Positions 16,473-64,000 of a DNA stretch of 64,000 bases are shown here, in pieces (the first letter of the stretch is position 1; each line of letters opens with the position of its first letter). The stretch lies in the NCBI GenBank assembly GCA_040877595.1, contig JBBDNM010000062.1:10911-74910 (forward strand). The letters run 5' to 3'. This DNA is from Gemmatimonadales bacterium. GTDB taxonomy: Bacteria > Gemmatimonadota > Gemmatimonadetes > Gemmatimonadales > GWC2-71-9. The notes beneath the pieces were generated by a model. That model had not been told where the DNA came from. It was given only the letters and a program-made list of their open reading frames with translations, and did not search any database. A program made the position numbers and the translations under genes.

Positions 16473-17581
16473 CTGCAACAGCAAGTGCAGCGTACAGGGG
16501 GCAAGGGGCAGGGGGCAGGGGCGCGAGCGGAGCGACCCTGCTCCCTGCCCCCTGCACCCTGCTCCTTGCACTTCTTGTGGGGTGTGGGGACGGGCGGACG
16601 CCTCTCGTCGTCTACTCCCCCCACGGCCGCGATCTGTTGTCCTTGTTCGAGGAACGCTTCGAGGCCGCGCACCCCGACATTGACCTCCGCTACCTCGACA
16701 TGGGCTCGCAGGATGCCCTCGATCGTGTGCGCACCGAGCGTGCCAACCCCCAAGCCGATGTCTGGTTCGGCGGGCCCTCGGCGTTGTTCGCGCGGGCGGC
16801 GGCGGAATCCTTGCTGACGGCCTATCGGCCGAGCTGGGCGGACCACATTGCCCCGCATGGGTGGGGAGCGGGCGACCTCTTCTTCGCCGCGTACGAGACG
16901 CCGGGCGTGATCTATTACAACGCCGCCGCGCTCCGACATCCCGACAGCGCGGACGATGGCCGCCGAGCGGCGCCGTCCGATTGGGATGACGTCCTCACGC
17001 CCGCGTGGCACGACCAGGTGCTGATTCGTGATCCGATCGCGTCCGGCACCATGCGCGCGATCTTCGGCATGATCATCCAGCGCGGGCTGCGGGAGACCGG
17101 CGACACCGCCTGGGGATTCCATTGGTTGCGCCGGCTGGATGCCAACACGCGCGAGTACGCGCTCAATCCCTCGCTGCTCGACCAGAAACTCATTCGCCAG
17201 GAGGGCCTGGTCTCGCTGTGGGACCTGCCCGACGTGCTGATCGCGCAGGGTACCGGAGCGCCGGTGGGGTTCGTGCTCCCCACGAGCGGCGCGCCGGTCA
17301 TCGTGGACGGCATCGCCATCGTGCGCGGCAGCGATCACTCGGAGGCGGCCCAGCGGTTTGTCGAGTGGGTCGGAACGGTTGCGGCCCAGTTGATGGCGGC
17401 GCGTGCGGTCTACCGCCTGCCGGCCCGTCTCGATCTGCCGGCGGACTCGGTGCCCGACTGGTACATTGCCGTGCGCACGCAGATGGTGGTGGCCGAGATG
17501 GACTGGGAGCAGCTCGCGGATCGCGGCAACGACTGGATGCAATGGTGGGACCGTCACGTCCGCAACAAGGGCGCCCCGTGA
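16469..17581 (+). CDS. ABC transporter substrate-binding lipoprotein, Fe(III)/thiamine-type (AfuA/FbpA-like)
   Basis: Lipobox LLALLVG|C, followed by a PBP2-like sequence (PLVVYSPHGRDLL..DVWFGGP..). The ATG at 16469 overlaps the upstream stop (ATGA). No other ATG, GTG or TTG lies between it and the lipobox. Residues ~9-30 are therefore encoded by the heptamer element. Confidence 0.8.
   Translation: MTATASAAYRGQGAGGRGASGATLLPAPCTLLLALLVGCGDGRTPLVVYSPHGRDLLSLFEERFEAAHPDIDLRYLDMGSQDALDRVRTERANPQADVWFGGPSALFARAAAESLLTAYRPSWADHIAPHGWGAGDLFFAAYETPGVIYYNAAALRHPDSADDGRRAAPSDWDDVLTPAWHDQVLIRDPIASGTMRAIFGMIIQRGLRETGDTAWGFHWLRRLDANTREYALNPSLLDQKLIRQEGLVSLWDLPDVLIAQGTGAPVGFVLPTSGAPVIVDGIAIVRGSDHSEAAQRFVEWVGTVAAQLMAARAVYRLPARLDLPADSVPDWYIAVRTQMVVAEMDWEQLADRGNDWMQWWDRHVRNKGAP
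16485..16571. repeat. Heptamer-unit inverted-arm element (G-rich arm gcagggg-type x5, 14-nt loop, C-rich arm x5); the G-arm is a canonical G4 motif
   Basis: Left arm is gtgcagc gtacagg gggcaag gggcagg gggcagg gg (16485-16521). Loop is cgcgagcggagcga. Right arm is ccctgct ccctgcc ccctgca ccctgct ccttgca c (16536-16571). The arms are imperfect reverse complements. 16497-16521 reads GGGGGcaaGGGGcaGGGGGcaGGGG. Confidence 0.8.
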
Positions 17582-21400: not shown

Positions 21401-21454
21401 GGGTGCAAAAAGGTGCAAAGGCGCAAAGGTGCAAAGGTGCAAGGGTGCAAGGGG
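21401..21454. repeat. Direct octamer array (ggtgcaaa-type, ~6 units) filling a convergent intergenic gap
   Basis: gggtgcaaaaa ggtgcaaa ggcgcaaa ggtgcaaa ggtgcaag ggtgcaag gggg lies exactly between the MFS stop (21398-21400) and the amidohydrolase stop (21458-21460). No inverted partner arm was seen. Confidence 0.8.
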
Positions 21455-23122: not shown

Positions 23123-23201
23123 GGCGGGAAGGCGGGAAGTCGGGAAGGCGGGACGGGCGAACCGCCTACTTCCCGCCCTCCCGCCCTTCCGCCTTCCCGC
23201 C
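23123..23201. repeat. Octamer-unit inverted-arm element (ggcgggaa-type); the G-arm is a G4 motif
   Basis: Left arm is ggcgggaa ggcgggaa gtcgggaa ggcgggac gggcg (23123-23159). Right arm is cttcccgccctcccgcccttccgccttcccgcc (23169-23201). The outermost 13 bp pair perfectly and the inner part needs bulges. The element lies between the decarboxylase stop (23166-23168, inside the element) and the amidohydrolase start (23110). Confidence 0.8.
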
Positions 23202-24602: not shown

Positions 24603-25512
24603 CGGTGGCGAATGCCTTGGCGAGGAACGCATGGACCGTGTCGCGATACATGGGCCCCGCATCGTCGTAGGTCTCGTTGTGTCCGGCGCCCTCGATAGGC
24701 ACCAGGGTGGCCTGTCGTGCGGCGTCCGCCAGACGCTGCCCCATCCAGAATGGCGCGATCCGGTCTTGCGTTCCGTGCAGGATCAGGACCGGTACGTCCA
24801 CCGACCGCAGACGTTCCAGATTGTCGAGGTCGAGACGCGTCATGATGCGCGGCAGGAACCAGTAGTGCCGCCGCGCCATGTCGCGTGCGTTGGTGAACGG
24901 CGCGTCGAGCACCACCGCCGCCGGTGTGCGGTGCGCGGCAAGCCACGTGGCCGACACGCCGCCGATCGAGCGGCCGTACACCGCGATCCGCATCGCATCC
25001 ACGTCCGGTCGCGCGGCAAGCCAGTCCCATATGGCTTCTGCGTCGCGGTAGACGTCGGCCTCGGTCGGCTTGCCCGGGTTCTCCCCGTAGCCGCGGTAGT
25101 CCACGGCCAGCAGCGCGGCGCCGGGCAGTCGCATCTGGAGCAGCATCGGCGCCATCGCGCCGACGGTTTCCATGATGCCGGTGAACCAGATGACGGCAGG
25201 CGCAGGGCGGGAGGTCGGGCGGGCGGGAGGCAAGAACCATCCGCTGAGCGTGAGTCCGTCGTGGGTACGAATCGCGACCCGTTCGCCGCCCTCCGGGGTA
25301 CCGAGCACATGGCGCGGCGACGGAAACGCGAGCCGGTCCTGCATCAGCCAGGCGACGAACACAATGACCAGGTAACTGACCGCGATGTACGCGGCGATGC
25401 GGAGGGCAATCGTCACGACGGTGAATCTACTGTCCCCGCGTCTCCGCGCCTCCGCGTGAGTATCTTCTCTCGCCATGTCCGACCTTGCCATCAGCTGTCG
25501 CGGTCTCGTCAA
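24592..25512 (-). CDS. Membrane-anchored alpha/beta hydrolase
   Basis: N-terminal TM segment VVTIALRIAAYIAVSYLVIVFVAWLM, nucleophile elbow GRSIGG, then ..ILHGTQDRI.. and ..GAGHNE... The start is uncertain: 25512, 25491 or 25476. The last shares a CATG with the divergent ABC gene start. Confidence 0.75.
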   Translation of the reverse strand: MTRPRQLMARSDMAREDTHAEARRRGDSRFTVVTIALRIAAYIAVSYLVIVFVAWLMQDRLAFPSPRHVLGTPEGGERVAIRTHDGLTLSGWFLPPARPTSRPAPAVIWFTGIMETVGAMAPMLLQMRLPGAALLAVDYRGYGENPGKPTEADVYRDAEAIWDWLAARPDVDAMRIAVYGRSIGGVSATWLAAHRTPAAVVLDAPFTNARDMARRHYWFLPRIMTRLDLDNLERLRSVDVPVLILHGTQDRIAPFWMGQRLADAARQATLVPIEGAGHNETYDDAGPMYRDTVHAFLAKAFATDAP

Positions 25513-28388: not shown

Positions 28389-29138
28389 TCAACTGAGTGC
28401 CGCCACCGCGGCCCGCACCGCCTGCGGATGCGACAGCGGCGGAACGTGCCGCGCCCCCGGCAGCAATCGCAGCTCGGCTGAGAGGCCCGTGGCGAGCGCC
28501 TGGGCCTCGCGCACGCGGAAGTAGGTGTCATGGGTTCCGTGGAGCACGATCGCGGGAACGTTGACCTCCTGCAATCGGTTCCGCACGTCGTAACCCACCA
28601 TCCCGGCGCGATACGCCCGGCGCCCCCGCACGGTCGTCTGGCGCCAGCCGGCGATACCCACCGCCAGTTCACTCCGGCCGCGATACTGCTGGAAGTCCAC
28701 GGTCCCGGTGCGGCCACCACCCAGGATGAGCTTGGTCGCCGCGCTGACGATGCCACTGTTCCAGATGGGCATCAGGGGCTTGGCGGGAAGGCGGAAAGGC
28801 GGGAGGCGGACGGCCGCCACATCATACATCGGGCCCGCGGTCGTGGAAATCAGAACGAGTCCGTGGATCGGTGGTTGCCCGGTCCCGTTGTGGCGGAGCA
28901 GCCACGCCAGCGCGAGCATCCCACCAAAGCTGTGGCCGACCACGATGCGTCGAGTCGCGTCACGCCATGACGGGGTGTTGGTGAACGTGTCGAGCGCATC
29001 CATGTACGCACCCATGCCCGCCCCCGGGCCGCCCGGGCCGTCGGAAAAATCCGGCCCAAACGACTCGGCCCCGAACGCCGGAAAGATCGTGGCGTTCAGG
29101 GCCATGCCGGGCAGGAGGAGGATGCGCGGTGCGGTCAC
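28389..29138 (-). CDS. Alpha/beta hydrolase
   Basis: GTG start. Nucleophile elbow GHSFGG, then ..VLHGTHD.. and ..GARHVPPLSHP... Confidence 0.8.
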   Translation of the reverse strand: MTAPRILLLPGMALNATIFPAFGAESFGPDFSDGPGGPGAGMGAYMDALDTFTNTPSWRDATRRIVVGHSFGGMLALAWLLRHNGTGQPPIHGLVLISTTAGPMYDVAAVRLPPFRLPAKPLMPIWNSGIVSAATKLILGGGRTGTVDFQQYRGRSELAVGIAGWRQTTVRGRRAYRAGMVGYDVRNRLQEVNVPAIVLHGTHDTYFRVREAQALATGLSAELRLLPGARHVPPLSHPQAVRAAVAALS

Positions 29139-35500: not shown

Positions 35501-35991
35501 TCGGCATCATCATGACGGGAGTCGGCGTGATTTCGCTGGCCGGCGTGGTGGTGAACAATGCTATCGTGCTGCTTGACTACACCGACATTCTGCGCGATCG
35601 CGACGGCCTCACGCGCCGGGAGGCCGTGGTCACCGCCGGTCGCACCCGGTTCCGCCCGGTCGTGCTCACCGCGATCACCACCGTGCTCGGCCTCGTGCCA
35701 CTGGCCATTGGGCTCAACTTTGATTTTCTCGGCCTCTACACGCGCCTGGCGCCGGAATTCTACTGGGGCGGGGAACAGGCCGCCTGGTGGGGCCCGATGG
35801 CCATCGCGGTCATTGCCGGCCTCACCTTCGCGACGTTCCTCACGTTGGTGATTGTGCCGGTGATGTACTCACTGCTGGACGACCTGGACAAAGTCATCAA
35901 GCGGTACTTCCTGCCGCAGGAGACCTCGGAGGCGGCCGTGCCGCACGCGCCGGTTCGACCGAGTCGGGAGACGGAAGCGATTACTGTATAG
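32572..35991 (+). CDS. RND efflux permease (AcrB/HAE1-like, 1139 aa)
   Basis: Typical N-terminus ..SLAIRHPTVVLVMTAIIILTGL... 12-TM pattern with two large loops. ..LGMLVDNAIVVVENI.. and ..LAGVVVNNAIVLLDY... The start shares one base with the MFP stop (TGATG). Confidence 0.92.
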   Translation: MTPHNAPGEFREFGLTSLAIRHPTVVLVMTAIIILTGLSAYITIPKESSPEIVVPMVVVNTIYTGVAPRDIETLLTRPLEEELNTIADVKRITSTSVEGYSSIIVEFDAGMDMDEALQRVREKVDIAKPRLPTAAEEPGIFEINFAQFPIMQVNIAGPYSLVRLREVAEDLQDRIEQIPSVLEVTLSGGLEREVQVDVDLAKLQFYNLAYGDVIDAIRDENVTIPGGSVDVGDMKFLVRVPGQFEATALIADIVVKVAGGRAIYVRDVATVDFGFKERDSYARLDGQSVVSLAISKRAGENIIATAEAVRDVLASREAHFPVGTVVKVTADQSEDIHDMVSSLENNIISGLILVVAVLLFFLGMRTASFVGLAIPMSMLLSFSVMQLTGMTMNMVVLFALILALGMLVDNAIVVVENIYRFVEQGFDRKTAARYAVGEVAVPIIASTLTTLAAFFPLTFWPGIVGEFMKFLPLTLIITLSASLFVALVIVPVLCSLLLELEGARTPPMTPAARWTLIGGGGVAMLIVGSGAWLAPPLLILTGILIWQFHTRVAAPIGAWFMTAALPRIISRYEHLLRWALEHRLRMLAAAAGAMVLAIMAFSVLNAGIEFFPEDIPPATVYVQVEAPAGTRLEATDAMVQGLEAELRALSGSEDFQSVVATSGNRVSQNFGGPSNGSHLATIAVNFVDFQDRRTDGFVTLERMRQTIGRTVAGAHISVEAMQGGPPSGAPVAIEIAGEDPEVLRDLGAEVVRILENSPAYPKLDGLASDMEGGRPELVINVDRERAALWGLNTQDVGFMVRSAINGTEASKYRDGKDEYDITVRLAPAWRSDLSALGDLMLATDDGAQVPLSSVASWHVGTGMGDVRRKDLDRVVSITSDVRAGYNANAVVAEVRELLAPFERELPAGYTFAFGGQQEEQAEAQAFLSAAFVMAVLLIGFILVSQFDSVTKPLIILSSVVLSTIGVLIGLIVFRMPFGIIMTGVGVISLAGVVVNNAIVLLDYTDILRDRDGLTRREAVVTAGRTRFRPVVLTAITTVLGLVPLAIGLNFDFLGLYTRLAPEFYWGGEQAAWWGPMAIAVIAGLTFATFLTLVIVPVMYSLLDDLDKVIKRYFLPQETSEAAVPHAPVRPSRETEAITV

Positions 35992-36060
35992 GGTGTAAGG
36001 TGTAGGGTGTACGGTGTGCCATTCCCTTACACCCTACACCTTACACCCTTCACCTTGTAC
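35991..36060. repeat. Heptamer-unit hairpin (ggtgtaa-type): perfect 21-bp stem, 16-nt loop, plus extra right-arm units; possible bidirectional terminator
   Basis: gggtgtaaggtgtagggtgta (35991-36011) is the exact reverse complement of tacaccctacaccttacaccc (36028-36048). Further units ttcac cttgtac run to 36060. The element fills the gap between the RND stop (35989-35991) and the nitrilase-family stop (36061-36063). Confidence 0.85.
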
Positions 36061-36906
36061 CTAAATCTCAAACCAGCTCTGATATAGATCCGCCCGCCGA
36101 TCCCGCCAAAACAACGTCTTCGCCGGTGACGCCTGGTTCGCATCCAGATCCACGGTGCAGACGAGGAGATCTTCCTCGAGCCGCTTCCCGCGCGCCACCA
36201 CAGCGCCCGCCGCGTCTACCACGAACGATTCGCCGGCAAACGTGAGCTTCTCCTCGACGCCTACGCGGTTGCACAGCGCCGCCACGTAGCCGTTCTGGAA
36301 CGCCGCCGTCCGCACCTCGGCTTCGAACAATCCCTCCGGCCATTCATCCAGCGCGCCGGCCTGCGGAATGATCACGACCTCCGCCCCGCCAAGTGCGAGG
36401 GCACGCATGTACTCCGGGTAGTGACGGTCGTAGCAGATGGCGACAGCGATCTTGCCCACCGCCGTGTCGTACACCGGCGCGCCGGTGTCACCCTGATCGT
36501 AGTACTGCTGCTCGTGAAAACAGGCGTACTCGGTGATATGCAGCATGCGGGTGACGCCGAGCAACGTGCCATCGGCGTCGAACACGGGGGAACTGTCGTA
36601 GCAACGGTCGCCGGCCTGCTCGTACAGGTTGAAGACGGTGACCAGCCCAAGCGCCCTGGCCGCGGCCGCGATGCGTTGGGTCGTGGGGCCGGGAATCGGC
36701 TCCGCCAGCGCCCGCGCCCCGCCGTATCCCTCGTGTTGCGGGAAGAACCGCGTGACCGCGAGCTCGGGAAACGCGATGAGACCGGCACCCAGCGCGTGGG
36801 CGCGACGCATGGCGTCGAGCGCCTTGTCGAGATTGACGGCCGGGTCGGCGTCCGCCGCGAGCTGCGCCAAGGCCAGCGTGACGGTCCGGCCCGCCTCCCG
36901 TCTCAC
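36061..36906 (-). CDS. Carbon-nitrogen hydrolase (nitrilase superfamily)
   Basis: ..VTLALAQL.., ..LIAFPELAVTRF.., ..KIAVAICYDRHYPE.. (catalytic Cys context) and ..IIPQAG... The chosen start is GTG at complement(36904..36906) inside the heptamer array. The upstream 162 codons of the track ORF are rejected because they overlap the hemoglobin gene in another frame. Confidence 0.8.
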   Translation of the reverse strand: MRREAGRTVTLALAQLAADADPAVNLDKALDAMRRAHALGAGLIAFPELAVTRFFPQHEGYGGARALAEPIPGPTTQRIAAAARALGLVTVFNLYEQAGDRCYDSSPVFDADGTLLGVTRMLHITEYACFHEQQYYDQGDTGAPVYDTAVGKIAVAICYDRHYPEYMRALALGGAEVVIIPQAGALDEWPEGLFEAEVRTAAFQNGYVAALCNRVGVEEKLTFAGESFVVDAAGAVVARGKRLEEDLLVCTVDLDANQASPAKTLFWRDRRADLYQSWFEI

Positions 36907-36962
36907 GTCTCCCGTCTCCCGTCTCCCGTCTCCCGTCTCCCGTCTCCCGTCTCCCGTCTCCC
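36897..36962. repeat. Direct heptamer array (cccgtct / GGGAGAC on minus strand), 9 units + 3 nt, no inverted partner
   Basis: Eight consensus units and one variant unit cacgtct (36904-36910). It encodes the hemoglobin tail GRRETGDGRRETGDGRRET. The variant unit supplies the minus-strand GTGA, which is the hemoglobin stop (36903-36905) and the candidate nitrilase start (36904-36906). The minus strand is a (G3N4)n G4 motif. Confidence 0.9.
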
Positions 36963-39226: not shown

Positions 39227-41354
39227 AGCTAATCTGGTCGGGGGCCGCTGCGCGCTGTATGTTCGCCATCACATGGCCTATCTCCGACTCCACGATCTCC
39301 GTGACCACAGCCGGATCGAGTTCGACGACGTGGCACTGGTCCGCGTTGGTCGCGATCCCTCCTCCGAGTTCGTGGTGGCGGGACCGGGCAGCGAAGTCGT
39401 CTCGGGATCGCATGCCCGGTTCACGCACCGCGACGGTGCGTGGTATGTCGAAGATGCGGGTGGTCGCAACGGCACGTTCGTGAAGGGCACCCGCGTGACG
39501 CCCGAAGCCCCATTGCGGCTCACGGCGGACGTGGAAATCCGTTTTGGCCAGCAGGGGCTGCGGTTTCAGGTCGAGGCCGTGACCAAACGGATCATCGCCG
39601 AGACCATCGCGGAGGCTCCAGTACGCGCGGTGGACCCGGAGAGGACGGCGCCCATGGACGCGGTGGATATCCCGGCGCCGCCGCCGCCACCGAAACCGGT
39701 TCCGCCACCGCCGCCGCCCCCGAAGCCGGCTCCGCCGCCGCCACCCAAGGCGCCAGAACCACCGAAGCCGCCGTCCGGCCTGGTGGTCACGCTGCGGCAC
39801 GGTGCCAGCGGCAACACGTTCACGGGGCAGGGGGGACGCCAGCGGATTGGTCGCGGGCGGGAGTGTGAACTGCGACCGGTGGAGCCGGGTGACGCCGCCG
39901 TGTCGCGGGTGCACGCCGAGATCGTGCAGAAGCCCGATGGATCGGTCGTGTTGCGGGATGCCCAGAGCCGGAACGGCACCCTGCTCAACGGCCAACGTGT
40001 GGAGGGCGAGCGTCCCGTCAACGTCGGGGATCGCATTCAGCTCGGTGATCACGGACCGGAGCTGGTGGTGGAATCCCTCACGGGCGCGGCATCCGTCGCA
40101 GCGTCCGCGGCCCCGCCTCCGCCGCGTCCGGTGGTGGTCTCGGGCGCCCCGAAGGACTCACGACGCTCGTTCGCGGGGAAGGGGCGCACGCTCTTCTTCA
40201 AGGATTTGATTCAGGAGACGGAGCGCAAGAGCCGGGATCGGGTCCGCGCGATTGTGTGGACGTTCGTTGTGCTGCTCGCCGGAGCGGCCGGCGGCCTGTG
40301 GTGGGTTGGTGAGCTCCGCGTGCGGGGGACCGAGGCCGTGCTCGAGGCGCAGCGCCTGGCCGCTGACTCGGTCAGTCAGGCGGCGCAAGCGGAGGTGCGC
40401 CGCCTCACGTCCGAGATCCTTGCCGCGCGCGCCGGGTCGGCACCGGTGGCAGTGCTCGATTCCCTCCGGAACGCGCTGTCCTCCGCCGAACGACGCACCA
40501 CGCAGCTCGAAGGCGCGCTCGCGCGCTCGCAGGCGTTGATCACTGAACAGCTGGCCTCCGGCGATTCGCTGCGCGTGGCCGCCGAGCGGGAAACCGCGCG
40601 GCTGCGGCAGCAGCTCCAATCGGGGGGTGGGAGCGGCTCCAGCGCCGCGCTCGACAGCATTCGCGCGGCGATGCGCGCGGCGGAGGAACGCGCCGCCGAG
40701 CTGGAGGCAGGGCTCCGGGCCGTGCGCGGCGTGGATCTGGCGCACATCGCCGAGCGGAATCAGGCCGCCGTCGGACTGGTCACGGCCTTCTCAGCGGGCG
40801 GCGCCTTTGATGGATCCGGATTCGTGCTCACCGCCTCCGGGTATCTCGTCACCAACCGGCACGTGGTGACGCCCGATGGCCGGCGCGCGGATTCGGTGCA
40901 CGTGATGATGGCGGACCAGCAAACACCGTTCCGCGCGGACATTATCGCCGTCGCGGATGCCCAGGGACCCGATCTGGCGGTGCTCCGGTTGCGTAGCTAC
41001 TCCGGCGCGCGCATCGCGGCAGTGGATTGGCGCGGCGATGCGGCACGCCAGGGTGAACCGGCTGCCTCCATTGGCTTCCCGACGGGCATTGCCGCCGCCT
41101 ACGACCAGACCACCCGCACCGTGCGCACCTCCCTGAGCGGTGGATACTTCTCAAAAGTGTCCGAAGACATGATCCAGTACGATGGATTCACGGTCCCGGG
41201 GTCGAGCGGCAGTCCGATCTTCAACGCCTCCGGGACGGTCGTGTCGGTGCATGCCCGGGGCTTGCGTGAAGGGCCGGGCTTGGCGTTCACCGTGCCCATT
41301 CGTCTGGTGCTTCCCCTCTTGCCAGCGGAGGCGCGTCGCGAACTGGGGCTGTGA
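39213..41354 (+). CDS. FHA-FHA / TM / coiled-coil / trypsin-like (S1) serine protease
   Basis: FHA1: ..VGRDPSSEFVV..VSGSHARF..WYVEDAGGRNGTFVKG... Pro-rich linker PPPPPKPVPPPPPPPKPAPPPPPK. FHA2: ..IGRGRECEL..VSRVHAEI..LRDAQSRNGTLLNG... TM: IVWTFVVLLAGAAGGLWWV. About 150 aa of Ala/Arg/Glu/Leu-rich helix. Protease triad contexts TNRHV, DLAVLRL and GSSGSPIF. The start is ATG 39213 or ATG 39273. Confidence 0.85.
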   Translation: MDESKANLVGGRCALYVRHHMAYLRLHDLRDHSRIEFDDVALVRVGRDPSSEFVVAGPGSEVVSGSHARFTHRDGAWYVEDAGGRNGTFVKGTRVTPEAPLRLTADVEIRFGQQGLRFQVEAVTKRIIAETIAEAPVRAVDPERTAPMDAVDIPAPPPPPKPVPPPPPPPKPAPPPPPKAPEPPKPPSGLVVTLRHGASGNTFTGQGGRQRIGRGRECELRPVEPGDAAVSRVHAEIVQKPDGSVVLRDAQSRNGTLLNGQRVEGERPVNVGDRIQLGDHGPELVVESLTGAASVAASAAPPPPRPVVVSGAPKDSRRSFAGKGRTLFFKDLIQETERKSRDRVRAIVWTFVVLLAGAAGGLWWVGELRVRGTEAVLEAQRLAADSVSQAAQAEVRRLTSEILAARAGSAPVAVLDSLRNALSSAERRTTQLEGALARSQALITEQLASGDSLRVAAERETARLRQQLQSGGGSGSSAALDSIRAAMRAAEERAAELEAGLRAVRGVDLAHIAERNQAAVGLVTAFSAGGAFDGSGFVLTASGYLVTNRHVVTPDGRRADSVHVMMADQQTPFRADIIAVADAQGPDLAVLRLRSYSGARIAAVDWRGDAARQGEPAASIGFPTGIAAAYDQTTRTVRTSLSGGYFSKVSEDMIQYDGFTVPGSSGSPIFNASGTVVSVHARGLREGPGLAFTVPIRLVLPLLPAEARRELGL

Positions 41355-59657: not shown

Positions 59658-60122
59658 ATGCGTACGATTCTGGCAGGGTTGGTCCTCGTTGCCGTTGCGT
59701 GTGGTGGTGGTGAGAGCGGTTCATCTGACAGTGCCCCGGCCGCGACGCCGGCAGCCGATGCTGCGCAGCCGGCCGCGCAGGGTGCCGTGCACGAAGTGCG
59801 CATGGAGCTCACCGCGGGTGGCGATTACGTCTATAGCCCCGCCGCGCTTACGATCCGGCAGGGCGACCGCGTCCGCTGGCTCAACATCAGCGGATTTCCG
59901 CACAACGTCGCCTTCTACGGTGACCGGATTCCGGCCGGCGCCGAGGCGATCCTGAACGCCGCGATGACCAACCGCATGGGCAGCCTGTCCGGCGCGCTCA
60001 TGGTGGCACCGAATGCCGTGTATGAGATCAGTTTTGCCGGCGCCCCGACGGGCACCTACAACTATTTCTGCACGCCGCATGAAATGGTTGGCATGGTCGC
60101 GACGCTGACGATTACCCAATAG
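59658..60122 (+). CDS. Plastocyanin/azurin-family blue-copper lipoprotein (cupredoxin)
   Basis: SD aaggag (59641-59646). Lipobox VAVA|C. Type-1 Cu ligand contexts FPHNV and FCTPHEMVGM. The upstream 19 codons of the track ORF are rejected. Confidence 0.85.
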   Translation: MRTILAGLVLVAVACGGGESGSSDSAPAATPAADAAQPAAQGAVHEVRMELTAGGDYVYSPAALTIRQGDRVRWLNISGFPHNVAFYGDRIPAGAEAILNAAMTNRMGSLSGALMVAPNAVYEISFAGAPTGTYNYFCTPHEMVGMVATLTITQ

Positions 60123-60130
60123 CGAGAGCT

Positions 60131-60222
60131 GGGAGATGGGAGACGGGAGACGGAACACAGCCGCCATCTCCCGTCTCCTATCTCCCGTCTCCCGTCTCTC
60201 GTCTCCCGTCTCCCGTCTCTCG
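60131..60222. repeat. GGGAGAC heptamer element: 3-unit left arm, 10-nt loop, 8-unit right arm (asymmetric hairpin + direct array)
   Basis: gggagatgggagacgggagacgg (60131-60153) pairs with ccatctcccgtctcctatctccc (60164-60186) with 2 mismatches in 23 bp. Five more gtctc(c/t)c units run to 60222 and end exactly at ATG 60223. It uses the same unit as the array at 36897-36962. Confidence 0.88.
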
Positions 60223-61626
60223 ATGCCCCCCCGCGCCACCCTGATCATCCTCGACGGGGCTCGTCCCGACGTGTTCCGTCATGTGGTGGATCGCGGCGAC
60301 CTGCCGCACGTCAGTCGTCACCTGCTGGAACCGGGCGGTATCACGCCCGCCACCACCGTCTTTCCCTCGACCACCGGAGTGGCCTACCTGCCATTCCTGA
60401 CGGGATGCTACCCCGGCACCTGTGACGTGCCGGGGATTCGTTGGCTCGACCGGCGCCACTACGGTGGGCACTGGTGGCGTGATCGGGAGCACGTCCGGAG
60501 CTATTGCGGGTATCAGGGAGGCCGTCTGAACTCCGACCTGCCGGATGGCATGCGGACCGTGTTCGACCTCGAACCCGACAGCGTCGCGCTCTGTACGCCC
60601 TTTAACCGTGGGCTGAAGCCGGGCCGTGAAGGCGCGACCCGCGCACGCGCGTTGTGGGGCGGACTCGCGCACTATACCATGGGGTACGACCTGCTTGAGC
60701 GCGCCGTTGGCGCGGAACTCGTGCGTCGGGCACGTCAGCGGCATCGGTTCACGTTTGCCGTGTTCCCCGGCGTGGACGGTGTCACACACTTCTACGATCC
60801 GTGGCACGAAGACGTGCTCGATACGTACCGCGCCTTCGACGACATCTTTGGCGACTTCGCCAAGGCAGGCGGCACGGACGGCAATCACCTGATCGTTCTC
60901 GCGAGCGATCATGGGCTTTCCCGTGTGGATCGCCATACCGATATCGCCGTGGCGCTGGAGGGCAGGGGCGTGCCGGTTCTCCGCCATCCGCTGCACCTGT
61001 GGCGTCGCACCCCGCAGGCCGCGGTCATGGTCTCCGGCAATGCGTCGGCGCAGGTCTACTTCCATCCTGGCGACCAGCGCGCCGAGCGCTACACGGTGTC
61101 GGCTATGGAATCAGGGCTCCGTGGCATCCCCAACGGCATCGTCACGTGGTTGGCCAACCTGCCTGGGATCGCGTTCGTGGTGGGTACGGAAGGAAACGAC
61201 GTGGTCGCGGTGGGCCCGGGCGGGCGCGCGCGCCTGAGGGATCGGGGGAACGGCCGGATTGCCTACCAGCCGGAGACCGGCGACCCGCTGGCTCTTGGCG
61301 CCGCCGCCGAGCGGCATGAACGGGAATGGCTGGCCCTGAGCCACGACGGGGCATTTCCCGACGCGCCGATGCAGCTGCTCCAGTTGTTTCGCTCAGCGCG
61401 TACCGGCGATCTGGCGGTGATTGCCGCGCCCGGCGCCGACCTGCGCGCCGATTGGGAAATACCGGAGCACCGATCCGGCCACGGCTCGCTGCACGGTGAA
61501 CACATGCGGTGCCTGGTAGCCGCCAATCAGGCGTGGCCCGGCCCGATCCGCACGCCCGATCTGTTCCCCATCCTGCTGCGCCATCTGGGGCTGCCGGTAC
61601 CCGACGGATTGGACGCTGCGGCGTGA
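60223..61626 (+). CDS. Alkaline-phosphatase-superfamily nucleotide pyrophosphatase/phosphodiesterase-like protein
   Basis: MPPRATLIILDGARPDVF.., ..FPSTTGVAYLPFLTG.., ..LASDHG.. and ..HRSGHGSLH.. fit the type I phosphodiesterase/AP superfamily metal-site pattern. The 29 upstream codons of the track ORF are repeat-encoded (SRLLSPVSRLSSPVSRLS) and rejected. Confidence 0.8.
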   Translation: MPPRATLIILDGARPDVFRHVVDRGDLPHVSRHLLEPGGITPATTVFPSTTGVAYLPFLTGCYPGTCDVPGIRWLDRRHYGGHWWRDREHVRSYCGYQGGRLNSDLPDGMRTVFDLEPDSVALCTPFNRGLKPGREGATRARALWGGLAHYTMGYDLLERAVGAELVRRARQRHRFTFAVFPGVDGVTHFYDPWHEDVLDTYRAFDDIFGDFAKAGGTDGNHLIVLASDHGLSRVDRHTDIAVALEGRGVPVLRHPLHLWRRTPQAAVMVSGNASAQVYFHPGDQRAERYTVSAMESGLRGIPNGIVTWLANLPGIAFVVGTEGNDVVAVGPGGRARLRDRGNGRIAYQPETGDPLALGAAAERHEREWLALSHDGAFPDAPMQLLQLFRSARTGDLAVIAAPGADLRADWEIPEHRSGHGSLHGEHMRCLVAANQAWPGPIRTPDLFPILLRHLGLPVPDGLDAAA

Positions 61627-62309
61627 CGTGGTGGCAGCGGCTGACCCGCCGTCGCGGGAGTCTGGCGTGGGATGGCGTCGTGCGGGGCACGCTGGTGCTC
61701 GCCATCATCGGGATCGTCGTGTTGTTGCTGGGATCAGACGACGCGGGTGGACTGGTGGGCTTTACGATTGTGACGGTGTGGGTGAATGGCCCCATCGGGA
61801 TGTTCCTGCCCGCCACGTACGAACCCATCCTGATGCTGTTCGGTACGCTGTACCCAGCGGTGCTGATTGCCTCGTTTGGCATTGCCGGTACGCTGTACAT
61901 CGAAGGCCTCAACTACTACCTCTACCAACGTTTGCTGCACACGCGGGCGATGCGTCCCGCGCGCGACAACGCCCTCGTGCGGCGCCTCACGCGCATGTTT
62001 ACCCGCGCGCCGTTCTTCACGATCTGGATGTGCAGCTGGTCGCCGTTGCCCTACTGGGCGGTGCGCATCATGGCGCCGCTCGCCAACTATTCCGTTCCGC
62101 GCTACCTGTTCGCGACATTCCTGGGGCGTTTTCCGCGACTGTGGTTCTTTGCGTGGCTCGGCCCAGCCCTCAATCTCTCCACGCGGACGCTTGCGATTGT
62201 GACGGGGGCCTCGATACTTCTGTTTACCTCGATATTTCTCCTCAAGGGAAGGAGAGACGTGGAGCAAACACACGTGGAGCAAACACACGTGGAGCGCTCC
62301 AAGCGCTAG
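61623..62309 (+). CDS. VTT-domain (DedA/TVP38-like) membrane protein
   Basis: The GTG at 61623 overlaps the upstream stop (GTGA). Polytopic, with ..SPLPYWAVRIMAPLANYSVPRYLFATFLGRFPRLWFFAWLG... The C-terminal RRDVEQTHVEQTHVERSKR is encoded by the left inverted repeat. Confidence 0.65.
   Translation: MTWWQRLTRRRGSLAWDGVVRGTLVLAIIGIVVLLLGSDDAGGLVGFTIVTVWVNGPIGMFLPATYEPILMLFGTLYPAVLIASFGIAGTLYIEGLNYYLYQRLLHTRAMRPARDNALVRRLTRMFTRAPFFTIWMCSWSPLPYWAVRIMAPLANYSVPRYLFATFLGRFPRLWFFAWLGPALNLSTRTLAIVTGASILLFTSIFLLKGRRDVEQTHVEQTHVERSKR
62244..62297. repeat. Left inverted repeat (15-mer acgtggagcaaacac x2.6) of the element carrying the four-helix-bundle gene
   Basis: 62256-62282 gacgtggagcaaacacacgtggagcaa is the exact reverse complement of 62743-62769. 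Flanking similarity (aaggga..gg..gacg and cgt(g/t)gagcgc) extends the match to ~50 bp. Confidence 0.9.
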
Positions 62310-62371
62310 TTCAGCCCTCAGGTGCGCGATTCTGGTTAACGGCGGGATCGCCGGCCGCGTTATGGTCCGTG

Positions 62372-62728
62372 ATGCACCCCTTCGAGCGACTGGAAGCCTG
62401 GCAACTCAGTCATCGCCAGACCATCCGCGTCTACAAGCTTACGAGATCGTTTCCGGCTGACGAACGCTTTGGCCTGACGAACCAGCTACGACGGTCCGCG
62501 GCTTCGGTGTCGGCGAACATCGCGGAAGGCAGCGTCGCCTCCTCAAAGAAGGAGTTTCTGCGCTACCTCGGGATCGCGAAGAAATCTCTGAATGAGGTGG
62601 CCCACTGGTATATCCTGGCTCGGGATATTGAGTACATCACCTACGAGGTGTGGAGGGACCTGAACAACCTGAACCACCGGGTGGGCAAAGTCATCTGGGC
62701 TCTCCACAACCACTTGGGTGGTTCGTAG
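62372..62728 (+). CDS. Four-helix-bundle protein (23S rRNA intervening-sequence protein / DGR Avd family; TIGR02436/PF05635-like)
   Basis: MHPFERLEAWQLSHRQTIRVYKLTRSFPADERFGLTNQLRRSAASVSANIAEGSVASSKKEFLRYLGIAKKSLNEV..W..LARDIEYI matches the family hallmark (F..L.vWQ.a..l...iY.lt..FP.eE.ygLtsQlrRAa.Si..NIAEG......kef..fl.iA.gSl.E). The upstream 248 codons of track ORF 61628 are rejected. Confidence 0.9.
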   Translation: MHPFERLEAWQLSHRQTIRVYKLTRSFPADERFGLTNQLRRSAASVSANIAEGSVASSKKEFLRYLGIAKKSLNEVAHWYILARDIEYITYEVWRDLNNLNHRVGKVIWALHNHLGGS

Positions 62729-62777
62729 CGCTCAACGTCTTCTTGCTCCACGTGTGTTTGCTCCACGTCCCTCCCTT
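62728..62777. repeat. Right inverted repeat of the four-helix-bundle element
   Basis: gcgctcaacgtcttcttgctccacgtgtgtttgctccacgtccctccctt starts at the last base of the stop codon (62726-62728). Confidence 0.9.
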
Positions 62778-62888
62778 ACTTGCGACGAGGCCAATGAAGA
62801 GACCGATACCTAGTCCCGCAATCGCATCAACAGCATAGTGCATCTGAGACCAACCCAAGCCACCCCGCCAGCAGCTTGTCGGTGGCGG

Positions 62889-63845
62889 TCAGAGCCATCC
62901 GTGCCGCCGGTACCACGACGCCGTGTGCTCCAGCCCGCGCTCCAGATTCATCGCGGCCTTCCAGCCGGCGGCCGTCTCGAAGGGCTTGGGGTCGGCCGTC
63001 CACGCCGGCGCCAGAAACTCCGGTGCCTTGTCAGGCGAGAGCAATGTGGCCTTGCCCGCAAGCCGCGCGGCCGCACCCGTCAGCATCAGCGCGCCCCGGG
63101 CGAGGAAGCCTGGGATGGGCAGGATCCATGGCGCCTTCCCACGCACCTCACGCCCGATGGCGGTGACCAATTCGCGGGAGGTAACCGTTTCGGGGTGCGC
63201 GACGAACCAGGATTTTCGTGTGGGGACCGCCGTCGCGGCGAGCAGCGCGGCCACGAGGTCGTCCACATGAATGAGTGACAGTTCCTGCGCGCCCGTCCCA
63301 AACACCGGAGCGAGGCCCCAGCGGGCCAGCTTGAACACGCGGAGCAGCTCGACATCGCGCGGTCCGTACACGGTGGGTGGCCGGACAATGGTCCATTCGC
63401 CCGCATGACGCTCGACGGCTTCCTCAGCTGCGCGCTTGCTCCGCCCATAGGGCGTCACGGGGCGTGCGGGTTCGGTGCCACGCAACGGCCGGCCGGGCTC
63501 GCTGGGTCCCGCCGCCGCGAAACTGGAGACAAACACGAACCGCCCCGCGGTCGCGGCGAGCAACTTCTCGGTGGCCTGCACGTTGACGCGGTGGAACTCG
63601 GGCCAGCCCAGCGCGGCGGTCAGCGCCGCCAGGTGATACACGACCTCGGCCTCGCCGGCGCCGCGCGCAATGACGTCGGTGTCATGCAGGCTGCCCCGGA
63701 GGTAATGCGGCGCGCGCGCGCCAAACAGGCGGTCGGCCTTGGGCTGCGAGCGCACGAGCGCCGTGACGTCATGCCCCTCGGCCAGCAGGCGTTCCACCAG
63801 GTGGGAGCCGACAAAGCCCGTGCCCCCGGTAACGAATGCTTTCAC
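62889..63845 (-). CDS. NAD-dependent epimerase/dehydratase (extended SDR)
   Basis: MKAFVTGGTGFVGSHLVERLL (GxxGxxG). The GTG start overlaps the upstream stop (GTGA). Confidence 0.88.
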   Translation of the reverse strand: MKAFVTGGTGFVGSHLVERLLAEGHDVTALVRSQPKADRLFGARAPHYLRGSLHDTDVIARGAGEAEVVYHLAALTAALGWPEFHRVNVQATEKLLAATAGRFVFVSSFAAAGPSEPGRPLRGTEPARPVTPYGRSKRAAEEAVERHAGEWTIVRPPTVYGPRDVELLRVFKLARWGLAPVFGTGAQELSLIHVDDLVAALLAATAVPTRKSWFVAHPETVTSRELVTAIGREVRGKAPWILPIPGFLARGALMLTGAAARLAGKATLLSPDKAPEFLAPAWTADPKPFETAAGWKAAMNLERGLEHTASWYRRHGWL

Positions 63846-64000
63846 AGGGTGCGGTCGTACAGGCGGAGGGTCTTGTAGCGGCGGAACCCGATGTGCTCGA
63901 GCGCGTTGCTCATGGCCACGTTGTCATCGAGGATCCAACCGGCCTCGCCCCAGTCGTGCCCGCGCGCGCGAGCCTTCTCCCAGAGCCAGTGATACATCAA
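63842..64000 (-). CDS. 3' fragment of a gene running off the window end (possible N-acetyltransferase-like C-terminus)
   Basis: The complement frame gives ..LMYHWLWEKARARGHDWGEAGWILDDNVAMSNALEHIGFRRYKTLRLYDRTL* with the stop at 63842-63844. It is not in the ORF track because there is no in-window start. The functional guess is from memory of a W.LEDN...YK..R.Y C-terminal motif. Confidence 0.5.
   Translation of the reverse strand: MMYHWLWEKARARGHDWGEAGWILDDNVAMSNALEHIGFRRYKTLRLYDRTL

Follow-up and report, generated by a model that had tools for sequence, protein, structure and literature searches.

What is a gene of the 23S rRNA intervening sequence (IVS) protein family doing between long inverted repeats in a locus that lies outside any rRNA gene? 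The question is raised by a region near one end of a 64,000-nucleotide stretch of Gemmatimonadales DNA (contig JBBDNM010000062.1), referred to here as the window. The protein family has been known since 1993, and 23S IVSs bearing its S23p/PF05635 genes occur in Leptospira, Coxiella burnetii, Brucella and Haemophilus. An earlier note, made from the window's letters, had described the region as an rRNA-IVS-like module, a stem plus an open reading frame (ORF) for a four-helix-bundle (4HB) protein, and had suggested that it was either an RNA-processing cassette or an insertion module. We find that it belongs, as an ordinary member, to a very large class of 4HB cassettes. In each of them a stem of 30-60 bp, with arms built as mirror-image arrays of short tandem units, holds a TIGR02436 gene of ~120 amino acids (aa) in its loop. 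Both suggested identities are viable, and the RNA-level one is favored: in the explanation we prefer, with a probability of roughly 0.55, a promoter-less cassette is transcribed together with its host operon, and its RNA stem, probably cut by RNase III, insulates the cassette from the transcript.

The 27-nt perfect repeat on which the description was built (62256-62282 and 62743-62769, exact reverse complements with a spacing of 460 nt) extends without gaps to 62243-62298 and 62727-62782, giving 56-nt arms that are 86% complementary and that enclose a 428-nt loop, in which the ORF is co-oriented with the upstream operon. No longer inverted repeat (within 1.5 kb) occurs anywhere in the 64 kb of the window. 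The tandem 15-mer reported in the arms is indeed there, and because the arms consist of tandem units, a second perfect register of 24 bp is present between them; the last part of the right arm, CCCTCCCTTACTTG, is complementary to the outer left arm. The right arm begins in the stop codon of the 4HB gene, as had been claimed, although at the A of TAG and not at its last base. When the joined arms were folded and compared with shuffled sequences, z was -13.6; folding of the whole 556-nt segment as RNA gave z = -5.65, with the long stem in the minimum free energy structure, and the observed fold energy was never reached by shuffled sequences. The arm motif GACGTGGAGC has 16 matches in the window versus 10.7 expected, six of the 16 being the arms themselves, so that elsewhere in the window the motif is at chance level and not dispersed. 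An Rfam scan of 60000-64000 detected no rRNA and no family at the module, returning only sub-threshold miRNA-hairpin look-alikes located at a smaller hairpin at 60.1 kb. No T-run was seen 3' of the arms, and in the 73-nt leader between left arm and start codon a sigma-70-like promoter was sought and not found and a Shine-Dalgarno sequence was not clear.

The sole convincing gene in the loop encodes the 118-aa member of the 23S-IVS family that the earlier note had recognized. Its match to PF05635 (1.7e-34; 118.6 bits, cutoff 33.8) covers residues 5-108 and profile positions 1-104 of 106, and it also matches TIGR02436 (6.2e-33; 113.3 bits, cutoff 24). Models of Avd, the accessory protein of diversity-generating retroelements (DGRs), gave weak scores below their cutoffs (PF22296 and NF033474; 20.4-20.5 bits versus cutoffs of 80 and 40), PHROGs returned just a weak Avd match (1.3e-3), and the PADLOC defence library returned no match. 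From the published family motif, GxxRxxxSxxxNxxE (PMC3936711), the RxxxSxxxNxxE core is present in the window protein as R41-S45-N49-E52, within RSAASVSANIAE, and Q38, R40, S45, N49, E52, G53 and E75 are invariant in an alignment of 46 sequences. In searches of the PDB, the family profile matched 2GSC (Xanthomonas XCC0516; 3.6e-39) and 2RLD (4.5e-14), entries with five chains of one sequence each, and the Xanthomonas protein is described as a homopentamer in a study of Coxiella (PMC4990558). The window protein, with an isoelectric point of 9.9 (family median 8.9), is basic and, judging from these relatives, probably pentameric. It is the product of the only 4HB gene in the 64-kb window, while the family as a whole comprises 46,573 clusters at 50% identity (E <= 0.001).

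The pairing of gene and arms proved to be a property of the family. Eighty loci with relatives of the gene were taken from one-genome-per-species contigs, including isolate genomes and long-read metagenome-assembled genomes, of Planctomycetota, Verrucomicrobiota, Bacteroidota, Acidobacteriota, Gemmatimonadota, Proteobacteria, Deinococcus and others, and 79 were scored by the best local alignment of the 200 nt 5' of the gene against the reverse complement of the 200 nt 3' of it; pseudo-genes displaced within the same loci served as controls. The mean flank score was 42.6, versus 17.5 for controls, whose 99th percentile was 28. Seventy metagenome loci, among which no orthologue above 52% identity over the best segment was found, provided an independent replication set, and 61 of them exceeded the control 99th percentile (Mann-Whitney p = 5e-32). 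The earlier note had staked its link between gene and stem on other 4HB genes of the genome also being flanked by inverted repeats; among homologues elsewhere, in both samples together, 129 of 149 lay over the 99th percentile of displaced controls. Most of the 25 matches in 2.9 million viral contigs also had such arms. Since isolate genomes and long-read assemblies are among the loci, it is unlikely that the result is an assembly artefact. A search of about 160 sampled loci for five motifs conserved in 23S rRNA and one conserved in 16S rRNA gave no match, indicating that location in rRNA is the exception.

Module features were computed on the 118 modules that scored at least 30. The best arm period was 7 in 58 and 14 in 43 (together 101/118), and 15-16 in only six, including the window module, whose 15-nt unit is thus an unusual variant of a normally 7-nt period. 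The median arm is 32 nt long, about 4.4 units, with 26 nt separating the left arm from the start codon and 12 nt the stop codon from the right arm (medians). The units show both conserved and variable positions, and the dominant heptamer takes 67 different forms among the 118 modules (GTTGANN, TTAGNNN and others). They follow a strict strand polarity, with 11% C and 33% G in the 5' arm and a positive GC skew in 102/114. In-register pairing between the arms (0.87) exceeded the identity of neighboring units (0.74) in 60 of 65 modules, a comparison biased by choice of the best register, and this indicates that the arms are mirror copies and not two independent arrays. The window module shares all features of the class, having mirror tandem-unit arms, a C-poor 5' arm abutting or overlapping the upstream stop and a right arm running from the 4HB stop, and departs from it in two respects, the 15-nt unit and a host ORF that reads through the entire left arm, which it can do because 15 is a multiple of three.

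A period of 7 rotates a stop triplet through the reading frames, so that an arm can carry stops in all three, and 70 of the 118 left arms do, versus 46.7 expected from random heptamer tandems of the same composition. A three-frame stop-codon insulator was nevertheless rejected as a general explanation, because it does not apply to the GC-rich genome of the window, whose module arm contains none, as is also true of the 5' arms of three of the four cargo-less hairpins described below. Damaged modules persist at some loci. A small nested hairpin interrupts the right arm of L141, and L065 lacks that arm altogether, the TGA of its 4HB gene overlapping the ATG of sdhB. On Nostoc plasmid pCC7120alpha (L199, 1330-1990), a CTCTGCC right arm is kept with no G-rich array upstream, where there appears instead, by eye, the 3' end of a transposase ORF that is not annotated in the record.

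The position of the modules relative to neighboring genes was equally consistent. The longest neighboring ORF was co-directional with the 4HB gene in 91/112 cases upstream and 81/113 downstream, and the neighbors fall into 97 Pfam families upstream and 87 downstream. Upstream hosts include SdhA (11), branched-chain amino-acid binding proteins, ABC ATPases and the ATP synthase gamma subunit; downstream hosts include SdhB-type Fe-S proteins, liv permeases, ATP synthase beta and EF-Tu/EF-G. The cassettes thus sit in housekeeping settings such as sdhA/sdhB, atpG/atpD, liv and translation factor genes, and no reverse transcriptase, transposase or nuclease was found among the 25 most frequent neighbor families on either side. 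The distance from the stop codon of a co-directional upstream gene to the start of the left arm had a median of 1 nt (interquartile range -6 to +7), with the stop inside the arm in 43 of 96, and the right arm ended a median of 10 nt before the first in-frame start of the downstream ORF. In orthologous sdhA-4HB-sdhB loci, the left arm directly follows the sdhA stop in 11 of 11, and the right arm mostly ends in or beside the sdhB ATG; in L048 and L074, 5-15 nt separate arm and ATG. In loci whose arm extends to the ATG, stop and start are held together by the base of the stem. Ten of these loci, analyzed with RNAalifold, gave 21 pairs, six of them with compensatory double changes. In X. campestris, an array of four GGGAATC units lies 6 nt past accB (XCC0517) and overlaps the annotated start of XCC0516 (supplement of PMC4692102), which is the gene of the crystallized family member 2GSC.

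In the window, the host is a VTT/DedA-type membrane protein gene. It shares 4 nt with the phosphodiesterase gene before it and closes a cupredoxin-phosphodiesterase-VTT operon, so that the cassette comes at the 3' end of three operon genes. The last ~22 VTT codons (..KGRRDVEQTHVEQTHVERSKR) fall within the left arm, consistent with the earlier suggestion that the arm had overwritten the 3' end. Related loci bear this out and give the module a history. L004 has a 4HB gene 85% identical to that of the window, in the order cupredoxin-phosphodiesterase-VTT-4HB, with arms of four 15-nt units (58 nt, 83%); its leader shares with that of the window only the short stretch GGTGCG..ATTCTGG.TA, judged by eye on unaligned sequences. 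In L005 and L006 (4HB 72% identical), VTT-4HB is convergent with an intact PAP2 gene, and the arms have degenerate 16-nt units (arm fold z = -4.7). L092 has the VTT gene and a left arm of 16-nt units in which the contig ends, and no 4HB gene was seen there. Between the window and L004, the 4HB gene has a pN of 0.09 and a pS of 0.82, and it is accordingly under purifying selection; the synonymous differences are saturated, and across this distance the arm core GACGTKGAGC and the pairing of the arms have been kept.

Comparison with insert-free relatives, which the earlier note had proposed, yielded two empty VTT/PAP2 junctions (L008 and L093), in which both genes are convergent and overlapping and the 4HB gene and both arms are absent; the target-site duplication that such a comparison might have revealed was not found, there being no direct repeat at the module boundaries. 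VTT C-terminal tails differ wherever the module is absent, so that none of these insert-free relatives has the C-terminus of the window protein, whose tail is supplied by the arm. L008 has no hairpin at the junction. L093 carries, at about 1045-1075, a perfect 12+12 palindrome (AGGGGCGACGCA followed by TGCGTCGCCCCT), an ordinary hairpin and not a unit array. We considered insertion of the gene into a pre-existing unit-array hairpin and rejected it, because neither empty site has such a hairpin. In the VTT tree, L008 and L093 form a clade with 87% bootstrap support within the module-bearing group, whose internal resolution is poor. On this poorly resolved tree, the simplest history is one ancestral gain and one clean loss. 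The module itself is no recent insertion; in this lineage it is old and has been passed on vertically. The metagenome contigs of L004 (end 3250) and L092 (end 1285) stop inside or directly after an arm; inverted unit arrays may break short-read assemblies, and cassettes may be under-represented in them.

The earlier note had also linked the module to cargo-less hairpins elsewhere in the window, and this link has held. The four window hairpins have tandem-unit arms, loops of 10-22 nt and, in every case, a G-rich and C-poor 5' arm, and three of the four begin at an upstream stop codon or at most 20 nt after it. Each has its own unit, and the 15-mer of the 4HB arms is found nowhere else in the window. 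The position of the 60.1-kb hairpin is kept in L004 (572-657, GGGAGCA in both arms) and L005 (2036-2104, GGGAGAC), and since the unit differs in every copy of both arms between L004 and the window or L005, the arms change in concert. In other genomes, period-7 arrays occur at about one per 13 kb around modules, some of them as short-loop hairpins. Cargo-less arrays within 3 kb of a module belonged to the module's own heptamer family in 13 of 32 cases, versus 6.6% of random pairings (p = 2e-6). No cargo other than 4HB genes was noticed between heptamer arms in the array list (~0.5 Mb), on which no scan aimed at other cargo was made. These results support the idea that hairpins and cassette belong together, and give no indication of their order of origin.

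The best precedent for what the stem might do comes from the rRNA versions. In Coxiella, the S23p ORF is enclosed by terminal inverted repeats that form a 28-bp stem. RNase III cuts this stem in vitro, and the ends have been mapped by rapid amplification of cDNA ends; the 5' arm contains tandem GACAGAT heptamers whose number varies by strain (PMC4990558, where earlier Leptospira and Salmonella work on the IVS stem as an RNase III substrate is cited). The window module has the same geometry with protein-coding flanks, which upholds the IVS-like description of the earlier note. By analogy, a cassette without a promoter of its own, co-oriented at a host gene boundary, would be transcribed within the host operon (here cupredoxin-phosphodiesterase-VTT); the median 26-nt leader leaves most loops no room for a promoter, and most cassettes are co-oriented, which argues for such transcription. 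The arms would then pair in the transcript, making a side-branch of the ~400-nt insert and bringing the host's upstream stop codon and downstream start codon back together. RNase III would cut the stem as it cuts the rRNA stems, releasing a 4HB mRNA with paired ends and leaving the function of the host RNA nearly untouched, and we propose that the cassette persists in rRNA and core operons because the host RNA tolerates its excision. For modules outside rRNA, we infer co-transcription, stem formation in vivo, RNase III cleavage and stem insulation from these rRNA versions and from features that are directly visible, namely the anatomy, the orthologous conservation, the purifying selection, the family-wide geometry, the co-orientation and the compensatory arm changes.

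Several observations weigh against this explanation. The window cassette lies between convergent genes at an operon 3' end, so that only its upstream junction matters and there is no downstream co-directional cistron to protect. Across the survey, 19-28% of modules are not co-oriented with a neighbor, and on the Nostoc edaphicum plasmid pNe_5 (L200, 1390-1930), a module flanked left and right by AGTAGGG/AGTGGGG arms is antisense to nrdB and nrdA, between which it lies. About 13-15% of the sampled members, including L065 and L199, lack an arm and yet persist. G.U mismatches in the stems were not significantly more frequent than A.C mismatches on the sense strand (122 versus 99, p = 0.14), and the mismatch spectrum therefore gives no sign of RNA over DNA pairing. 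In Coxiella, the S23p protein is not detectably made (PMC4990558). Sampling was confined to the clade with the FPx[DE]ERFGL motif. Finally, RNase III cleavage and structural bypass leave three features unexplained: the 7-nt period, the scarcity of C in the 5' arm, and the sharing of units with cargo-less arrays. It is possible that a C-poor 5' arm avoids Rho loading while awaiting its partner, and that heptamer units provide three-frame stops or one unit for each subunit of a pentamer.

The rival explanations place the function of the arms in DNA or in a bound protein, or deny that they have one connected with the gene. The module could be a DNA-level mobile or excisable element, with arms that are terminal inverted repeats or hairpin ends recognized by a trans-acting enzyme, the 4HB gene as cargo or accessory, and the cargo-less hairpins as solo derivatives or derivatives akin to MITEs (miniature transposable elements with inverted repeats), or as insertion targets. 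Its patchiness among close relatives, with gene and arms cleanly absent from L008 and L093, would be expected of such an element, as would the hundreds of unrelated insertion contexts implied by the diversity of neighbor families, the presence of several copies per locus (three 4HB genes within 3.4 kb in L044 and two within 2.3 kb in L012, each cassette with its own arm unit), occurrence on plasmids (31 records) and in rRNA genes, and the 4HB gene being the sole cargo noticed in the array list; mobility was also raised as a hypothesis in the IVS literature (PMC4990558). We nevertheless consider it unlikely, because the copies are as unlike one another as their 67 dominant heptamers, no transposase, reverse transcriptase or nuclease is frequent beside them, and the window module has been inherited vertically long enough for synonymous saturation. 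Among the hallmarks of MITEs and insertion sequences, the window module has the terminal inverted repeats, while a target-site duplication, a transposase in its neighborhood and dispersed copies of the arm motif were not found in the window. The tight spacing from stop to arm and from arm to start suggests selection at the level of RNA or translation, or else an exquisitely specific target.

Alternatively, the basic 4HB pentamer might bind its own arm units, one per subunit, together with the cargo-less hairpins of the same family, and so regulate or protect its own mRNA or, in the manner of REPIN/RAYT, maintain or propagate hairpins genome-wide. The median of 4.4 units per arm, the five-chain structures and the homopentamer cited above, the basic isoelectric points, the homology to Avd, the heptamer families shared with nearby cargo-less arrays, the conserved and variable unit positions with their strict strand polarity, and the GGGAATC array (a genome-wide family of 186 sites) that runs into XCC0516 (PMC4692102) are all consistent with this. 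Binding sites alone, however, need no mirror-order complementarity, and the register-biased 60/65 together with the compensatory changes speak for pairing; every window hairpin has a different unit, the 15-mer is unique in the window, and sequence-specific binding by family members is a conjecture. Such a system is an improbable full account, although it is compatible with the RNA cassette we prefer and not exclusive of it, and it and a DNA element are not mutually exclusive either. An ordinary terminator or intergenic hairpin, in whose loop an unrelated small gene had landed, or a chance inverted repeat, was suggested by the location between convergent genes, where bidirectional terminators are expected, by the small palindrome at the empty L093 site and by similar hairpins after other genes in the genome. 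That palindrome is not a unit array, L008 has no hairpin, shuffled sequences never reach the fold energy and no T-run follows the arms; above all, recurrence of the gene-arm pairing in homologues from many phyla effectively refutes this explanation, to which we give almost no weight.

The RNA cassette can be set beside several known systems. It resembles the 23S rRNA IVS in having a protein of the same family in the loop, sense to the host transcript, a long stem of terminal repeats, no promoter of its own and, as in Coxiella, tandem units in the 5' arm; it differs in that the window host is a protein-coding operon and not 23S helix 25 or 45, the arms overlap an upstream coding tail, the unit is 15 nt and not 7, and excision by RNase III, shown for rRNA versions such as that of Coxiella, is a prediction for the window module. 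Avd, a distantly homologous basic four-helix bundle (PF22296, NF033474; PDB 4DWL), assembles as a pentamer and binds nucleic acid. It is essential for retrohoming (review), but the window has no Avd match above cutoff, no reverse transcriptase among the Pfam-scanned genes around the module, and no template/variable repeat (TR/VR)-like or long direct repeat within about 1 kb on either side (61500-63500), all of which sets it apart from a DGR. REPIN/RAYT systems (REPtrons) likewise have a gene flanked by inverted hairpin repeats and cargo-less intergenic copies in the same genome; here, however, a HUH/Y1 transposase is absent, a 4HB protein being the cargo, and the repeats are unit arrays that vary between sites in this genome, with no sign of copy-paste identity. 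RNA stems in polycistronic mRNAs include RNase III sites between cistrons (the T7 early region, rpsO-pnp), translational-coupling stems and the ribosome shunt of the cauliflower mosaic virus leader. As in those long-range stems, the stem base juxtaposes an upstream stop and a downstream start, with the downstream ATG itself in the stem base in the sdhA/sdhB group, but the loop of a 4HB cassette is a complete conserved protein gene, and effects on translation or processing are predictions.

Bacterial heptamer repeats offer the closest likeness to the arms. Xanthomonas GGGAATC arrays, with ~70 convergent pairs (Rehm et al., 2015; PMC4692102), Beggiatoaceae TAACTGA (MacGregor, 2015; PMC4679880) and cyanobacterial short tandemly repeated repetitive (STRR) sequences have a 7-nt period, lie intergenically by starts and stops and include convergent G-rich/C-rich pairs that can form hairpins; a GGGAATC array abuts XCC0516, and Nostoc plasmid 4HB genes have such arms. 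The 4HB modules differ in consisting of two mirror-image arms that enclose a specific gene, and the two papers discuss G-quadruplexes or translational signals and mention 4HB/S23p proteins 0 times. A literature search, which did not extend to subscription journals, found nothing linking the PF05635/TIGR02436 family in general to flanking heptamer inverted repeats. Thus, the stem with an S23p ORF in 23S rRNA is known, as are heptamer repeats and their convergent pairs in Xanthomonas, cyanobacteria and Beggiatoaceae; what is new, provisionally, is the link between the two, as cassettes in mRNA operons. The 15-nt unit, the mRNA host and the coding overlap make the window module a variant, and the family-wide generalization is of more interest. 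A bolder idea, which we hold only as a long shot, is that 4HB genes and heptamer hairpins (cyanobacterial STRR, the Xanthomonas GGGAATC pairs, the window hairpins) form one ancient pan-bacterial system, in which the 4HB pentamer would act in trans, as RAYT does on REPINs, to recognize, maintain or spread the unit-array hairpins of gene boundaries, each 4HB gene would itself lie within such a hairpin, and rRNA IVSs would be copies that landed in rRNA.

If nearly all members of the family lie in unit-array stems where genes meet, then the rRNA IVS is just one instance of a general cassette, which inhabits core operons (sdh, atp, liv, acc, translation factors) and leaves them undisrupted. The layout offers a testable role for the arms, whether in excision by RNase III or in structural bypass. 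It also offers a possible origin for the heptamer-repeat hairpins that several groups have reported and left unexplained, and a way into the function of Avd-like proteins outside retroelements. Annotation is affected as well, since arms add repeat-encoded tails to host ORFs, as to the VTT gene here, and break assemblies, as in L004 and L092.

Table. Positions of the module, its flanking genes and the cargo-less hairpins in the window.
Feature	Position	Strand	Remarks
Host gene, VTT/DedA-type membrane protein, 228 aa	61623..62309	+	PF09335 6.5e-10; gene call in identical contig L001
Left (5') arm	62243..62298		Outer part unique, G-rich CAAGGGAAGGAGAG; remainder 2.6 tandem 15-nt units ACGTGGAGCAAACAC, 62257-62295
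Leader, left arm to start codon	62299..62371	+	73 nt
4HB protein gene, 118 aa, pI 9.9	62372..62728	+	PF05635/TIGR02436 profile matches
Right (3') arm	62727..62782		15-nt units 62730-62769, then CCCTCCCTTACTTG
Relic of PAP2 gene 3' end (last transmembrane helix), ..QMHYAVDAIAGLGIGLFIGLVAS	about 62783..62858	-	Pairwise comparison, 13/23 identical, E 5e-6
Hairpin, GGGAGAT/GGGAGAC .. GTCTCCC arms	60123..60219		Fills spacer from cupredoxin stop (60122) to phosphodiesterase start
Hairpin, GGTGTAA/GGGTGTA arms	35990..36049		Starts at stop of AcrB-type gene, which is convergent with CN_hydrolase gene
Hairpin, 8-nt GGCGGGAA arms	23123..23201		Between minus-strand Pyridoxal_deC and Amidohydro_3 genes; spans Pyridoxal_deC stop at about 23166
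Hairpin, GGGGCAA/GGGGCAG arms	16492..16571		20 nt past stop of PIG-L-domain gene, before solute-binding-protein gene

Within about 6 kb of the module, the neighbors are cupredoxin, phosphodiesterase, VTT and SDR genes, an unannotated 390-aa gene and an aminotransferase gene. The placement between VTT and SDR genes given in the earlier note is right on the VTT side; on the other side, the PAP2 relic, whose reading frame continues into the right arm, intervenes before the convergent SDR gene. The rest of the PAP2 gene, which is intact and convergent in L005, has been deleted, and the SDR gene was thereby brought beside the module.

Single-arm arrays also occur in the window. CCCGTCT, the same unit family as that of the 60.1-kb hairpin, is repeated 10.4 times at 36890-36962, where the minus strand reads AGACGGG; this array lies immediately 5' of the region of the CN_hydrolase domain and has no partner nearby. 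Five copies of AAAGGTGC directly follow the stop of an MFS gene, with no complementary partner nearby, and there are two shorter arrays of GGCGG(A/G)AA type, also without a nearby partner; the coordinates of these other single-arm arrays are 21409-21450, 28782-28810 and 25204-25230. A CCGCCG-rich 30-nt tandem repeat (x2.2) lies within a long ORF at 39672-39742.

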